The notes below the pieces were generated by a model that was given only the letters and a program-made list of their open reading frames with translations, was not told the DNA's origin and ran no database searches. Of a stretch of 33,887 nucleotides of DNA, positions 368-27,904 are shown one piece after another. The position numbers and the translations under genes were made by a program. Position 1 is the stretch's first letter. The number at the start of each line of letters is the position of its first letter. Source of the stretch: Candidatus Heimdallarchaeota archaeon (GTDB lineage: Archaea > Asgardarchaeota > Heimdallarchaeia > Hodarchaeales > Hodarchaeaceae); assembly GCA_019057635.1 (NCBI GenBank), contig DXJL01000160.1:1-33887 (forward strand), read 5' to 3'.

Positions 368-1477
368 TTAAATTAACCATTTTCCCTCTTTATAGATCAT
401 TTCTCCGTCAAGGAGAATTTTGGATTCTGGAGATTTCATATCCTTAAGTATATCCCAATGAATAGATGATTCATTCTTTGAGCCTGTTTCTGGATAGCCT
501 GCCCCTAATGCAAGATGAACAGTTCCACCCATTTTTTCATCAAAGAGCATATTCTTTGTAAATCGCTGGATACCATAATTGGTTCCAACAGCAAGCTCTC
601 CTAAAATATTAGCATTGGGAATTGTGGTGACAATCTTCTTTAGTAAATCCTTCCCTTTATCTGCATCGAAGTCGACAACTTTTCCATCTTTGAAGGTTAA
701 ACGAATATCTTCAATTTCCTGTCCAGAAAAAATACCTGGATAGGTAAATCGAATAGTGCCATTAACTGCATCTTCAATAGGGGCTGTGAAGACCTCACCA
801 TCAGGTAAATTTTCTTGACCACTACAATTTTCCCATGGACGTTGAGCTATTCCTAAGGTAAGGTCGGTATCCTCACCGATTATCCGCAAAGAAGAACCGT
901 TGTTTAATATATCGACAATGTGCTGTTGTTTTTTCTCGAAGTCCTGCCAAAACTTCACGGGATCGGGTTGATGAAGATTAAGTGCTTTATACGCAAATTC
1001 AAGATATTCTAATGGTCCCATATTCGCTTCTTGAGCGAAAGCATTACACGGAAATGGTGAAATATTCCACCTGAGCTCCTTTGTACTTGCTCGTTCAAGG
1101 AAAATTTTATTCATCTCTTTCCCTGCTTCAGCGACCATAACTTTCTTCTCAGGAGGGACACTTGTTAAATCCCTGGTATTAAAGGAAGCATAGATATTGA
1201 TGTATTTCTTTAGTGTCTTCACGATATCTAATTTAATAGGATTGATATATTTTAGTTGATTATCAGACGCAAACTTGAAAAATAATTCATCTTGACCATC
1301 AAAACTAAGATCTACTAAGATAACATGTCCTCCCGCTCGTAAAGTTTCGCGGTAAACAGTCTTTACCAAGGGTTCAGCGATCGTAGGTGCTTTTATAATA
1401 ACAGTGTCTTCAGGTTCAATTTTTACTGCATATTGAACAATTAATTTCGCAAGTTTTTCATTATAGTCAGAAAACAT
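368..1477 (-). CDS. Aminopeptidase, thermophilic metalloprotease family M29 (AmpS/AmpT-like)
   Basis: Motifs NLPDGEVFTAP, LGELAVGTN, LFDEKMGGTVHLALG, SSIHWD. ATG at 1477 is preceded by a GGAGGT SD (the track start at 1492 overlaps the SD). Confidence 0.93.
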   Translation of the reverse strand: MFSDYNEKLAKLIVQYAVKIEPEDTVIIKAPTIAEPLVKTVYRETLRAGGHVILVDLSFDGQDELFFKFASDNQLKYINPIKLDIVKTLKKYINIYASFNTRDLTSVPPEKKVMVAEAGKEMNKIFLERASTKELRWNISPFPCNAFAQEANMGPLEYLEFAYKALNLHQPDPVKFWQDFEKKQQHIVDILNNGSSLRIIGEDTDLTLGIAQRPWENCSGQENLPDGEVFTAPIEDAVNGTIRFTYPGIFSGQEIEDIRLTFKDGKVVDFDADKGKDLLKKIVTTIPNANILGELAVGTNYGIQRFTKNMLFDEKMGGTVHLALGAGYPETGSKNESSIHWDILKDMKSPESKILLDGEMIYKEGKWLI

Positions 1478-1582: not shown

Positions 1583-1775
1583 TATGGTTTGAGATGAATT
1601 TGCCGTTCTGAAAGACTTACCCAAATAGGACAGCTAGGAATAAGTTGGAAAAATTATTCTTAACTATCTTTGGAGCTGTTCTTCCTGATTCAGCGACGCG
1701 AGCCAGCATTCATGCAGGTCTTACCGCCTCTCCACAGGCGTTTAAGGTCTCCGCGGAACTCTCGGCGACAGGAAA
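1583..1775 (-). ncRNA. Putative TnpB omegaRNA (reRNA) scaffold (~1775-1603) plus ~20 nt flank-derived guide (CAAAUUCAUCUCAAACCAUA)
   Basis: GC-rich island with AACGCCUGUGGAGA and UGAAUCAGGAA. Stems include CCGAG/CGCGG, GAGGCG/CGCGUC, GCAU/AUGC and a long GAUAGUUAAGAAUAA/UUAUUCCUAGCUGUC stem with G-U pairs on the - strand. AAGAC/GUCUU could form a pseudoknot. Confidence 0.62.
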
Positions 1776-2064
1776 GACCCATGACTTTCCTGATTGATTA
1801 GCAGCTTTTCTTCTTATAAACCTACTACGCCCTGGAATCTAAAACAAATTTGCTTGTTTCCCGTTATTCTGATATCAAGATGTTACCTAGCGCATCATTT
1901 TAGGTATAATCCCATGAGATCGGTTGAACACTCTGTTAATCATTTATCTTAATCTCTACTCCCTTCTCCTAAGATATCCTGTCGTCTATTTCTCTTCTTT
2001 CCGTAATGTCATCTTGTCCTATGTGTCTAGAAATGGCCATATCTGTCAATCTATCCGACAACAG
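1603..2064 (-). mobile_element. Internally deleted, non-autonomous IS607/IS200-IS605-superfamily element (left end, degraded tnpA 5' part, tnpB 3' tail/omegaRNA, right end)
   Basis: The - strand at 1769-1710 encodes VAESSAETLNACGEAVRPA*, a typical TnpB tail, followed by GTCGCTGAATCAGGAAG and a terminus TTTGGGTAAGTCTTTCAGAACGG ending in GG. The distal end has repeated GACA motifs after CTGTTG. Left boundary is uncertain (2064 or ~2071). Confidence 0.75.
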
Positions 2065-2105
2065 TATTGACCCCTATGTTGATAAAACATCACCAATATA
2101 GGTGA

Positions 2106-2996
2106 ATGACAATGGAAATCAATTCAGAATTTGTTTATACTTCGTTAAATGAGAGTTTGAAGGAGATAACTTGGCAGAATATCATGTTATACGCCACAGC
2201 GATATCTGATCATAATCCCTATTATCTAGATGACGAAAGAAATGAGGGAATTGTTGCTCATCCTATGTTTCCAGTGACATTGACCCTACCGATCGTAGAA
2301 AACTTGGGTGACTATATTAGTGAAGATTCAAAACAGGAATTTCCGTATGAAGTATTAATGACCGTTGTGCATTACTCAGAGCATCTACAAATTCATAGAC
2401 TTATCCGTCCAAACGATTTTTTGAGAATAACGGGTAGGATTGAAGCAATAATCCCTCATAGAGCTGGTACACACGTAATCTTAGGTTTTAGGGGATTTAA
2501 TAGACAAAATCAACCAGTTTTTACCGAATATATTGGCGGAATGTTACGAGGTGTGGAATGCATAGGAGGGGAGAAGGGAAGTGAAAATATTCCTGTTATT
2601 CCAGTTTTAGATTCTACTGACTCTGTTTTATGGGAATCAGACCTTTTTGTTAACCCATTGCAGGCCCATATCTATTATGGCTGTGTCGGGCCAACATTAC
2701 CATTTCATATCTCAAAAGAGATTGCCCATCAATTGGGGTTACCTAATATAATTTTACAAGGAGTTTGTACATTAGCTCTTACAGTGAGCAAAATAATTGG
2801 TGAGGAATTGGATGGTGATCCATCCCAAGTAACAGAAATAGCCTGTAAATTTACATCTATGGTTATCCCCGATTCTAGAATAAAAATTGTAGTAAACCAT
2901 CAAATAAAGAATAACGAGGGTTGTGAATATTTTTTTGAGGTGTACAACCAGAAAAATAGAAAGGCGATTCGCGAAGGATACATTAAAGCCAAGTAG
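2106..2996 (+). CDS. Tandem hotdog-fold MaoC/PaaZ-like (hydratase-2-like) protein
   Basis: N-half YATAISDHNPYY...HPMFPV...VVHYSEHL; C-half PFH...GLPNIILQGVCTL...FTSMVIP. Confidence 0.85.
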   Translation: MTMEINSEFVYTSLNESLKEITWQNIMLYATAISDHNPYYLDDERNEGIVAHPMFPVTLTLPIVENLGDYISEDSKQEFPYEVLMTVVHYSEHLQIHRLIRPNDFLRITGRIEAIIPHRAGTHVILGFRGFNRQNQPVFTEYIGGMLRGVECIGGEKGSENIPVIPVLDSTDSVLWESDLFVNPLQAHIYYGCVGPTLPFHISKEIAHQLGLPNIILQGVCTLALTVSKIIGEELDGDPSQVTEIACKFTSMVIPDSRIKIVVNHQIKNNEGCEYFFEVYNQKNRKAIREGYIKAK

Positions 2997-25616: not shown

Positions 25617-26774
25617 TTGAATTTGGACTATCTTAGGATGATTGGTACACACAGCTTAACGATGAATCAGAAGCGAGTGATCGTTGGTTTATGTTTGTAT
25701 CCGATAGATTCTGATTATGAAATTGCCCGAAAACTATCAGTAAAACGTTCAACATTCTCAACAATTAAAAAAGAACTTATTAGTTCATTAGCGATTCGAC
25801 CAGTGAATATTCCAAATTTCCTATCACTAAAAGCTGAAGTAATCGCATTAGAGTACTTTCATCTGAATCCTGTTATACTAGCGAGGTTGATGAAAAATCA
25901 ACCTTCCAGTCTACAAGAACGCATTCAACACTTTCCAAACATCGTTTCGTCTACTATTGATACTCATGGTGGATTTTCGCTTCTAATTAGTAAATCATTA
26001 ACTGATGTGACATTGGCACATAAAACACTCGCCGGATTTTGTTATGAATCTGGTTTATCCAATCCACATAATTTCCACCTATATACTGCTCCTTCTACGG
26101 AACAGGGGGTGATAAATTTCATGGAATACGGAAAACAACTTGCATCAGTTTGGGGAATTCTGATTGAAGAGAAAGACTCGACTTCTCCTCTATTATGTTC
26201 TAGTGAAGATGTAATTGACCAAATATCTCCCGTAGGGTGGAAAATTTTCAATAATTTAATTAATAACCCAAGTAAATCGATAATTGAGCTAACAGAAATT
26301 GTTGGTAAACCTAGGAATACAATTGCTCGCTGGGTGCAATTTTTTCTAAGAAATAAACTCTATTTTACCCGATACATACCCAAATTAGTGATGCTTGGTA
26401 TGAAAATACAGGTAGTATATTTCATTTCGATAAAAGGGCTTAATGACAAAGATAGGAAACATTTAATTGAAAGTGTGCAATACAATATGAAACCATTCAA
26501 TCTCTTTGTTAGTCACAGAGAAATAGTGATAATTTCTGTATCGAAAGATTATTCTAGTTTCCGTAAAGATGAGAATGCCTTCATAAAAACCATTCGTAAC
26601 ACTACGAATACCCCCTATCAAATAAAAGACAGAATAGTGACCTCGACAGGAAATTTATCACTTGTTAAAGATTTTCATCGCTCATTAAATCCACTTTTGG
26701 AGTATTTAAAAGCTTCAGAGAGGTATAACTTGAAGCCATTCAATAAAAATACCGTAATCAAGAATTCTATTTGA
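25617..26774 (+). CDS. Double-HTH Lrp/AsnC-like regulator (paralog A)
   Basis: SDYEIARKLSVKRSTFSTIKK and SIIELTEIVGKPRNTIARW; start uncertain. Confidence 0.72.
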   Translation: MNLDYLRMIGTHSLTMNQKRVIVGLCLYPIDSDYEIARKLSVKRSTFSTIKKELISSLAIRPVNIPNFLSLKAEVIALEYFHLNPVILARLMKNQPSSLQERIQHFPNIVSSTIDTHGGFSLLISKSLTDVTLAHKTLAGFCYESGLSNPHNFHLYTAPSTEQGVINFMEYGKQLASVWGILIEEKDSTSPLLCSSEDVIDQISPVGWKIFNNLINNPSKSIIELTEIVGKPRNTIARWVQFFLRNKLYFTRYIPKLVMLGMKIQVVYFISIKGLNDKDRKHLIESVQYNMKPFNLFVSHREIVIISVSKDYSSFRKDENAFIKTIRNTTNTPYQIKDRIVTSTGNLSLVKDFHRSLNPLLEYLKASERYNLKPFNKNTVIKNSI

Positions 26775-26791
26775 TGGGATGGATAATCTGT

Positions 26792-27904
26792 ATGAAAAAT
26801 GAGTCAGATTTAGAAGGTGGATTAAGTGAACGAGAGCAACTCGTGATGGCCTACCTTGTACAATATCCAGATATTCCAGATTTCGAACTTGCATCAAAAA
26901 TCGGCATCAAACGTTCCACATTCTCAACCATAAAAAAACGGTTAAGGGCCAAAAAGTACTATGCACATGTTTATTTACCTAATGTGGCATATCTCAATAT
27001 AGAATTTATCACCCTCAATATACGAGTCATATCGGAATTATCTTCCTATTATGCTGTATCTGATTCATCTGATGAAAAAAAGTCAGTTGATTTTCTAGAC
27101 ATTCTAAAAAAGTCCAATAGACTTCTGTTTTCAGCCGTTGAGAGTAACCTGGCGTTATCTTTAAGCTGTTATGAAAATTATAATAAATTTGAAGAAATAT
27201 CGGATCAACTCGAAAACAAACTATTGAATTTGGGAATAAATTTCAGTTTCCAACAAGAATTACATTTTCCCATTCGATTATCAGAATTTCCAAGATTTCT
27301 TGATTATTCTAAATCATTATTCAGACATTTTGGTTTAAGCTTCGAAGAAAAACTAGAGAAACCTATTTTTCTACCCCCCCAAGATCCAAAACTGAGAATA
27401 ACACAAGTAGGACAAGAAATCCTCTATTCTTTTCTCGAAGCGCCAGGACGAACTCCAAGGGAAGTATCTCAATTAACTGGAAGACCAAGGACGACTACTA
27501 CAAGGTGGTTGAAAAAATTTGTTGATTCAGGAGTAATAGTACCCCGATTATTTCCCAACACTAAGAAGCTAGGGTTTAATATACTTCTTCTTTGCCGCTA
27601 CTGTATCATTTCATCTCAGGCCTCAACTATTGAGAGGTCACTGAGCCTTATTGATAAAGTGCTAACTCCAATTATTTTGATGAGATTTGGGTTTGATGTC
27701 ATAGTAACGGCAGTTTTTAGCTCTTTTGAGGAAGCTATATTGGCTGAAACTCATTTAATATCCTTAATGAGTGACAATGATATTCTGTTTGATGTAGAGT
27801 ATCGAAACTTCCTTTCACTTCCTCATACAATCACTACACTTGATTACATGGATTCTTTTATGCCAATCCTGACATTTTTAGGTGAAACAGAACAAACAAG
27901 TTGA
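26792..27904 (+). CDS. Double-HTH Lrp/AsnC-like regulator (paralog B)
   Basis: PDFELASKIGIKRSTFSTIKK and PREVSQLTGRPRTTTTRW...KKLGF; start probably MKNE. Confidence 0.72.
   Translation: MKNESDLEGGLSEREQLVMAYLVQYPDIPDFELASKIGIKRSTFSTIKKRLRAKKYYAHVYLPNVAYLNIEFITLNIRVISELSSYYAVSDSSDEKKSVDFLDILKKSNRLLFSAVESNLALSLSCYENYNKFEEISDQLENKLLNLGINFSFQQELHFPIRLSEFPRFLDYSKSLFRHFGLSFEEKLEKPIFLPPQDPKLRITQVGQEILYSFLEAPGRTPREVSQLTGRPRTTTTRWLKKFVDSGVIVPRLFPNTKKLGFNILLLCRYCIISSQASTIERSLSLIDKVLTPIILMRFGFDVIVTAVFSSFEEAILAETHLISLMSDNDILFDVEYRNFLSLPHTITTLDYMDSFMPILTFLGETEQTS

Follow-up and report, generated by a model that had tools for sequence, protein, structure and literature searches.

The minus-strand repeat described here, 473 nt long with sharp ends at positions 2075 and 1603, is very probably an IS607-derived mini-element that lacks tnpB and carries an omegaRNA scaffold. 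It belongs to a family of non-autonomous elements that we label type A for the purposes of this analysis. The window, that is, the whole stretch of 33,887 nucleotides that was analyzed, comes from a Candidatus Heimdallarchaeota genome and corresponds to contig C137. Within it, the element lies between the genes for an M29 aminopeptidase (371-1477, minus strand) and a MaoC-like dehydratase (2106-2996, plus strand). Alignments show that it arose by internal deletion from a 1.6-kb element that carries tnpB alone. This identity, taken jointly with a mechanism in which the RNA would be used by a TnpB encoded elsewhere, is on balance a probable explanation; as to whether RNA of the type-A family is made and used at all, we lean slightly toward yes. 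For annotation purposes, the element accounts for a 473-nt intergenic stretch that looked "empty" as well as for numerous contig breaks in the metagenome-assembled genome (MAG).

A sequence-only reading of the same DNA had proposed that this stretch encodes, on the minus strand, a TnpB tail, two scaffold motifs, a long stem, and an end motif, all of which are found in place (Table 1). It had also reported that the window holds neither tnpB nor an intact tnpA. In agreement, neither PF07282 (tnpB) nor PF00239 (resolvase) has a match on C137.

Table 1. Features of the window copy (window coordinates)
Feature	Position	Strand	Remark
AGGG left junction, a target/TAM-like motif; final GG is the presumed serine-recombinase core dinucleotide	2072..2075	-	
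Non-coding left arm (LE)	1821..2071	-	colinear with the sequence preceding tnpB in the full-length elements
TTTATAA box, presumed archaeal tnpB promoter in the parents	1814..1820	-	44 nt upstream of the scaffold
Leader and deletion junction (~1780/1779)	1770..1813	-	alignment to the parents
OmegaRNA scaffold and right end, GTCGCCGAG...CAGAACGG, 167 nt	1603..1769	-	85-88% identity to tnpB-linked copies
Frame GTC..TGA, reading VAESSAETLNACGEAVRPA*	1769-1710	-	
Scaffold motif AACGCCTGTGGAGA	1742-1729	-	
TGA stop private to the window copy, inside a scaffold hairpin loop	1710..1712	-	alignment column 59
Scaffold motif TGAATCAGGAA	1692-1682	-	
End motif TTTGGGTAAGTCTTTCAGAACGG	1625-1603	-	1 match, 0 expected (100 shuffles)
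TAA, natural tnpB stop position	1617..1619	-	14 nt before the right end; P0001 ends ...VLFG* there
Flank, would-be guide of 16-20 nt, CAAATTCATCTCAAACCATA	1583..1602	-	directly after the last scaffold base

Boundaries, Copies, and Insertion Site

Comparison of window positions 2400-1400 with the 214-contig genome by blastn yields 33 matches. Eight copies are assembled end to end (two on C75 and one each on C137, C150, C111, C153, C82, and C210), so the repetition is far beyond chance. The seven other full type-A copies are 90-93% identical to the window copy, and about a dozen more are interrupted by contig ends. Type-A copies differ from one another by 5-10%, with no identical pair. The flanks of the full copies are unrelated (pairwise difference of 0.61-0.67), and both the repeat copies and the metagenome contigs diverge exactly at 2075 and 1603, by which the boundary of 2064 that had been drawn from the sequence alone is corrected to 2075. 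The genome provides 13 left junctions of type A, along with 23 right ends for which 20 nt or more of flanking sequence is available; the right ends come from types A-C (see below) and from tnpB-linked copies.

In contigs of four public DNA runs, the depth over 1603-2075 exceeds that of the flanks many-fold, and loose contig ends accumulate at 1603 and at 2074-2075. The contigs of one run, X1, span both element junctions; because X1 may be the source sample, these bridging contigs provide no independent support. In all four runs, the summed contig depth is higher over the scaffold part (1596-1780) than over the left arm (1781-2076), as a scaffold common to many of the community's element types would predict. 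The contigs of the four runs contain no joint that skips 1603-2075, no near-identical empty site, and no excision joint.

Two congeners, G020 and G004, carry the same gene pair with an intergenic region of ~80-100 nt, compared to ~560 nt with the element, which identifies the element as an insertion. Of the empty alleles that the sequence-only reading had suggested looking for, the shorter intergenic region is thus present, but an allele of high identity is not: the empty sites of the congeners are only 70-79% identical, such that the exact donor joint is not readable from them. In another, close congener, a tnpB element from the C54/C152b clade, distinct from those described here (L049, G002:C75 1-1236, joined to window 1479), stops at the base directly before the start region of an aminopeptidase gene that is 96-98% identical to that of the window. 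With this second insertion, the intergenic region is a repeated landing site.

Derivation from a tnpB Element

Genome matches of lower identity come in pairs ~1.2 kb apart with a tnpB gene between them. This gene is intact on C139 (435 aa, P0001) and C104, broken on C152, and interrupted by contig ends on C210 and C58. When aligned to the elements of C139, C104, and C152, the window element consists of ~285 nt from upstream of tnpB joined to the last ~170 nt, and the intervening ~1.2 kb of tnpB has been deleted. An 8-bp hairpin, CAGGAAAG/CUUUCCUG (inverted repeat I11), straddles the deletion junction. In the parents, the scaffold region is composed of the last ~50 tnpB codons and a further 14 nt. 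Descent of a protein-less mini-element from a tnpB element, as had been proposed, is therefore apparent from the alignment, as is the expected match to the tnpB 3' end, in which divergence begins right after ...ACGG. The complete stretch that overlaps the 3' end of tnpB and includes the right end is retained, in keeping with the earlier assignment of a TnpB omegaRNA region. The suggested search for further copies and a tnpA-tnpB parent recovered the eight full copies and the 1.6-kb tnpB elements; neither the window element nor the full-length parents (C139 and C104) contain a tnpA.

The left arm of the window copy is 70-77% identical to those of C139, C104, and C152 and carries GTCAAT/ATTGAC and repeated GACA-type motifs. 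Its motif ATAGGACA recurs in inverted orientation in the right end (pair I2). The arm is probably non-coding, since 1-nt indels among the copies argue against a reading frame. Within the ~285-nt upstream region, GGTTTATAAG is conserved ~70 nt before the tnpB ATG. The proximity of the TATA box to the scaffold is a result of the deletion, which moved the presumed tnpB promoter there. The sequence-only reading had noted this box, albeit one base off, at 1819-1813 rather than 1820-1814. The box is kept in all eight full type-A copies, all three parents, both type-B copies, and all four type-C copies, and we infer that it acts as a promoter.

The TnpB tail that had been read from the window is present as a frame, but its TGA is premature and private to this copy. 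At alignment column 59, the window copy has a G where 11 of 11 other aligned type-A copies have a T; in these copies and in intact tnpB, the frame continues to the TAA at 1619-1617.

The TnpB of C139, P0001, contains HTH_OrfB_IS605, OrfB_IS605, and Cas12f1-like TNB domains. Both intact resident TnpBs retain the DxG, TE, and DRDxNAA motifs, which we take to hold the RuvC D/E/D catalytic residues. Relatives occur in MAGs of Heimdallarchaeota, Hodarchaeota, and Promethearchaeota, which fits the Asgard origin that had been guessed from the DNA. Among 41 genomes, no full-length element has a type-A-like scaffold (>90% identity). Recognition of the type-A scaffold by a resident TnpB is an assumption, given that the scaffolds linked to tnpB in this genome share only 85-88% identity with it. 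A second, larger tnpB clade is also present in this genome, G000 (C54, C163, C35, C133, C72, C152 at 26023-27297, C67, C69, and C179). It is only distantly related to P0001 (E ~1e-13 to 1e-17), and its C54 copy is paired with an intact IS607 tnpA.

Ends of the Element and Assignment to the IS607 Type

The assignment of the element to the IS607 type is supported by its ends and by the neighbors of related tnpB genes; the TnpB protein alone is indecisive. Of 13 type-A left junctions, nine read AGGG/GTCAAT (the slash marks the junction), two have GGGG, and the rest are variants that retain GG. All 13 type-A copies thus have a GG dinucleotide adjoining the left end, as do types B and C and the parents, in which the left junction is RGGG/TTGAYAA. 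The right end is ...CGG in 22 of 23 cases, and ACGG in the window copy. None of the eight full copies is flanked by a target-site duplication (no abutting direct repeat is present), and the termini, GTCAAT... and ...GAACGG, are not mutually inverted. The element is short, non-coding, and multi-copy, and its ends are common to a larger element, which are traits of MITEs; without terminal inverted repeats or a target-site duplication, it is only "MITE-like".

Three of 15 related loci (L043, L044, and L045) have an IS607-family tnpA immediately before tnpB. All three tnpA genes are broken by a stop or a frameshift, and the TnpB identity is 48-63%. The AACGG terminus is common to L043/L044, L045, and the tnpA-bearing element on C56, the right end of which is GAACGG. 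The genome carries two intact IS607-family transposases, on C56 and C54, and the gene that follows each is a tnpB from a different clade. The GG junctions, the lack of target duplication, and the IS607 tnpA remnants in relatives uphold the IS607 type that had been named in the sequence-only reading.

A strict PATE, that is, an element derived from IS200/IS605 whose single-stranded DNA is mobilized by a Y1 (HUH) TnpA and in which GGG is an ordinary TAM, is a very unlikely alternative on the same evidence. Its appeal comes from the protein, which is closest to the TnpB of ISDra2 (an IS200/IS605 element) and scores best on the NCBIfam IS200/IS605 TnpB model (265 bits; the IS607 model gives 220 bits, and neither score reaches its cut-off), and from a weak palindrome at the left terminus, in which GTCAAT and ATTGAC are separated by 15 nt (pair I4). 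According to one survey, association of TnpB with Y1 or serine transposases is polyphyletic, and "typical" TnpBs include both (PMC10691335). With respect to subterminal hairpins of the PATE kind, the left end has only this weak 6-bp palindrome with its 15-nt spacer. The transposase that a PATE would need has no match (Y1_Tnp) in the genome, which is 91.6% complete, or in seven of nine scaffold-bearing genomes. In G013, there is only a 99-aa Y1 fragment, and in G024, the full-length Y1 gene adjoins an unrelated TnpB (~32% identity). Also contrary to a PATE, IS607-family tnpA remnants lie directly upstream of the relatives' tnpB genes, and the GG that ends each junction matches IS607.

The right ends offer a view of the target. 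In 15 of 23 right ends, CGG is followed directly by a T, and in several cases (C153 and C56) the right flank resembles the left terminus, which suggests that targets resembling GGG plus the left end are preferred. The C56 case (L032, G000:C56 27187-29330) is a complete IS607 unit with a tnpA of 183 aa and an unusually long TnpB of 544 aa. Its insertion point is the stop codon of a zinc-ribbon gene, the new TAG being supplied by the left end of the element, and its right flank, ATAGACCTTGTT, is similar to its left terminus, GTAGACCTAGTT. The C153 case is a type-A copy (L004, G000:C153 778-1262) with a variant left terminus, TTGCTAAATACT, and a right flank that starts with TTGCTAAATAAT; the variant may reflect a target mimicking the left end or, alternatively, local conversion.

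Other tnpB-less Types

Two further tnpB-less types share the scaffold. Type B is found on C125 and C51, with an additional left end on C72, and type C is found on C174, G002:C82, and G005:C55, with a truncated copy in L038. All three types retain the entire 167-184 nt scaffold from GTCGCC on, and they differ in the spacing between the TATA box and GTCGCC, which is 44, 24, and 22 nt in types A, B, and C, respectively. The usual distance between an archaeal TATA box and the start site is ~25 nt, and transcription of types B and C would therefore start at the first scaffold bases. The three junction types are possibly not independent, as type B could be an A-like form that has lost a further 20 nt. 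Of the 23 right ends in the genome, at least 17 are without tnpB, three are linked to tnpB (two of them intact), and three are unassignable.

Type C was considered as a 223-nt element comprising promoter and omegaRNA only, based on the L038 copy, which starts 39 nt before the scaffold; longer flanks show a left arm of ~250 nt, and this candidate was rejected. At L038 (2942-5045), a full-length tnpB element is nested in the type-C copy at an internal GGGG/TTTGATGA, and this nested insertion accounts for two tandem scaffolds 40 nt apart. L043 contains a second short scaffold of its own type (2314-2448), ~800 nt downstream of the tnpB-linked one and with no adjacent tnpB, which may be another protein-less derivative.

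Structure and Decay of the Scaffold

For the scaffold, 31 sequences of 167-184 nt were aligned (12 type A, two type B, two type C, 12 tnpB-linked, and three from L043/L044), and a six-helix structure was drawn from RNAalifold and per-sequence folds. In this structure, 93.6% of cells pair, compared to 34-46% when the partners are slid by 1-3 columns. Nine pairs are changed on both sides, versus 4.4±1.4 in 500 shuffles (none of which reaches nine) and 1-6 in the slid versions, in a set of sequences that are close kin, are partly the source of the structure, and derive from a region that is protein-coding in the parents. The long 3' hairpin, the base of which pairs the conserved UCAGGAAG with GUCUUUCAGA, forms in 28 of 28 sequences outside L043/L044, and length changes at its tip do not abolish it. 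No Rfam family matches the window at its gathering score; two chance-level matches appear at E values up to 10.

The single-sequence fold of the window copy has a z-score of -1.66, and 16 of 200 shuffles fold equally well; it is the alignment, and not the window copy alone, that supports the stems. The two mismatched stems noted previously are both seen: a U-U mismatch in hairpin 3, where the family consensus is itself mismatched, and one broken pair in the distal stem. The window copy may already be decaying.

Across the eight full type-A copies, diversity is lower in the scaffold (0.059) than in the left arm (0.102). Within the 12 type-A scaffolds, the substitution rate is similar in paired and unpaired columns (0.031 and 0.036, respectively; Fisher p 0.53), and 20 of 36 changes in paired columns break the pair. 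The absence of a structure-preserving bias within type A is expected from neutral decay after insertion, and the caveat of decay raised earlier is a fair one. The outcome for covariation, which the sequence-only reading had proposed testing, is accordingly mixed, in that nine double-sided pair changes occur family-wide but no pair-preserving bias is found in type A. We read this pattern as constraint on the lineages that spread, followed by roughly neutral decay of the single copies.

The same observations bear on the possibility that the family, or at least the window copy, is an inert relic from which no guide RNA is made or used, its scaffold having been spared by the chance of the deletion and by the need of the right end for transposase binding. 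Type-A substitutions that are not structure-preserving, copies that have diverged by 5-10% with none identical, the private mismatches and unremarkable fold z-score of the window copy, and the lack of excision joints in the four DNA runs all point this way. We nevertheless consider a relic the less likely reading. Every tnpB-less type keeps the full scaffold together with a close upstream TATA box, whereas excision required no more than ~60 bp of the right end in the one IS607 element tested (10.1101/2023.11.20.567912). In addition, scaffold diversity is below that of the left arm, and tnpB-less right ends exceed the tnpB-linked ones.

Guide Sequence and Proposed Mechanism

In every copy, the guide is the immediate flank. 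The window guide is unique in the genome; it has four near-matches (at most two mismatches in 16 nt), none of which adjoins GGG, and the genome thus offers it no second TAM-adjacent target. Taken together, the 23 guides have 152 near-matches elsewhere in the genome, of which one adjoins GGG, approximately the chance expectation. In the occupied site, the guide is preceded by ACGG, not by the AGGG of the left junction.

These findings lend no support to the earlier suggestion that the guide, which matches the region upstream of the aminopeptidase gene, could regulate that gene. The match is trivial, as the guide equals the flank by construction, and the site lacks AGGG; we find no evidence for regulation in the match, the site, or a second TAM-adjacent target. 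A domesticated regulator, in which the guide steers TnpB or an inactive derivative to the promoter of the M29 aminopeptidase, is accordingly the most improbable of the explanations considered. The location is suggestive, with the element 125 nt upstream of the aminopeptidase ATG and in the same orientation, and read-through transcription into the gene is conceivable. However, a guide that equals the flank is a property of any such element, the one GGG-adjoining near-match of the 23 guides is no more than chance provides, both resident TnpBs retain their catalytic motifs, and the insertion is missing from congeners.

A mini-element that depends on TnpB in trans is better accommodated by the data, and loading of type-A RNA by a resident TnpB is plausible. 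In the mechanism proposed here, the left arm would keep presumed binding motifs for a serine-recombinase TnpA, and the TATA box would drive a minus-strand RNA of ~190-210 nt composed of the scaffold and the flank-derived guide. The TnpB of a full-length element would bind this RNA in trans. Upon excision of the element by a serine TnpA, the rejoined donor site (flank ...AGGG followed by CAAATTC...) would be cut, and repair of the break templated by an element-bearing copy would keep the element in place. As the occupied site is preceded by ACGG instead of AGGG, the element itself should escape cutting. A further, more tentative idea is that these elements are selfish "guide-RNA genes", in which selection on active lineages would retain a promoter and an omegaRNA between minimal ends.

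If correct, this idea would make the mini-elements hyperparasites of tnpB elements, hijacking the TnpB of a few full-length copies for homing, and would represent a natural split of guide and nuclease loci in an IS607-type system of an Asgard lineage. The Asgard lineage stands near the root of eukaryotes, and the IS607 family is linked to Fanzor. The type-A family is a clean natural test of TnpB guides in trans, for which the predicted pieces of a reconstitution are the TAM AGGG, the scaffold end ACGG, and the scaffold 5' end GUCGCC.

Comparison with Known Systems

In the literature searched, no title or abstract concerns an IS607-derived omegaRNA mini-element or these Asgard elements, although supplements of TnpB surveys may list some. 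The concept itself is already known, since PATEs with omegaRNAs are in print for bacterial IS200/IS605 elements. According to Meers et al. (2023, PMC10055086), PATE-like gene-less elements "often encode omegaRNAs" and need the TnpB of other elements in trans. Similar to the window element, the PATEs of Geobacillus stearothermophilus have no protein genes, keep both ends and the omegaRNA, depend on TnpA and TnpB made elsewhere, and outnumber autonomous copies. The main differences between the window element and PATEs are its IS607-type ends (a GG core and no target duplication) in a genome without a Y1 transposase, its Asgard archaeal host, and the archaeal TATA box 22-44 nt upstream of the scaffold.

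A second point of reference is CboIStron, an IS607 element with TnpA(S), TnpB, and an omegaRNA, for which a strict GG core, TGGG as target and TAM, and a scaffold ending in UCGG are reported (Zedaveinyte et al., 10.1101/2023.11.20.567912). As in CboIStron, a GG core is present at both junctions of the window element. The TAM is TGGG in CboIStron, and the putative TAM here is mostly AGGG; both are G-rich and end in GGG. In both elements, the scaffold end NCGG differs from the TAM at position -3 (C versus G), a difference that would spare the occupied site from cutting, and scarless excision would leave TAM and target. Unlike CboIStron, the window element has no intron, tnpA, or tnpB, and the TnpB sequence family is different.

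Structures of the TnpB-omegaRNA complex of ISDra2 have been determined (PDB 8bf8, 8ex9, and 8h1j), and residues 1-406 of the cognate TnpB, P0001, align with ISDra2 TnpB (8bf8) with an E value of 2.8e-46. The alignment takes in the C-terminal ...TLNA.G..VRPAS, a stretch whose coding sequence runs into the beginning of the scaffold. In contrast to the window element, ISDra2 belongs to IS200/IS605 and has a Y1 TnpA; the comparison is at the protein level, as Rfam offers no model to relate the RNAs. Similar to IS1341-type elements, which are tnpB-only, the parents on C139 and C104 carry tnpB alone between the same ends; the window element differs from this type in that tnpB has been lost as well. 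Protein-less, omegaRNA-bearing derivatives therefore appear to occur in IS607-type elements of Asgard archaea in addition to bacterial IS200/IS605 elements, and such derivatives can outnumber the nuclease genes on which they would depend.
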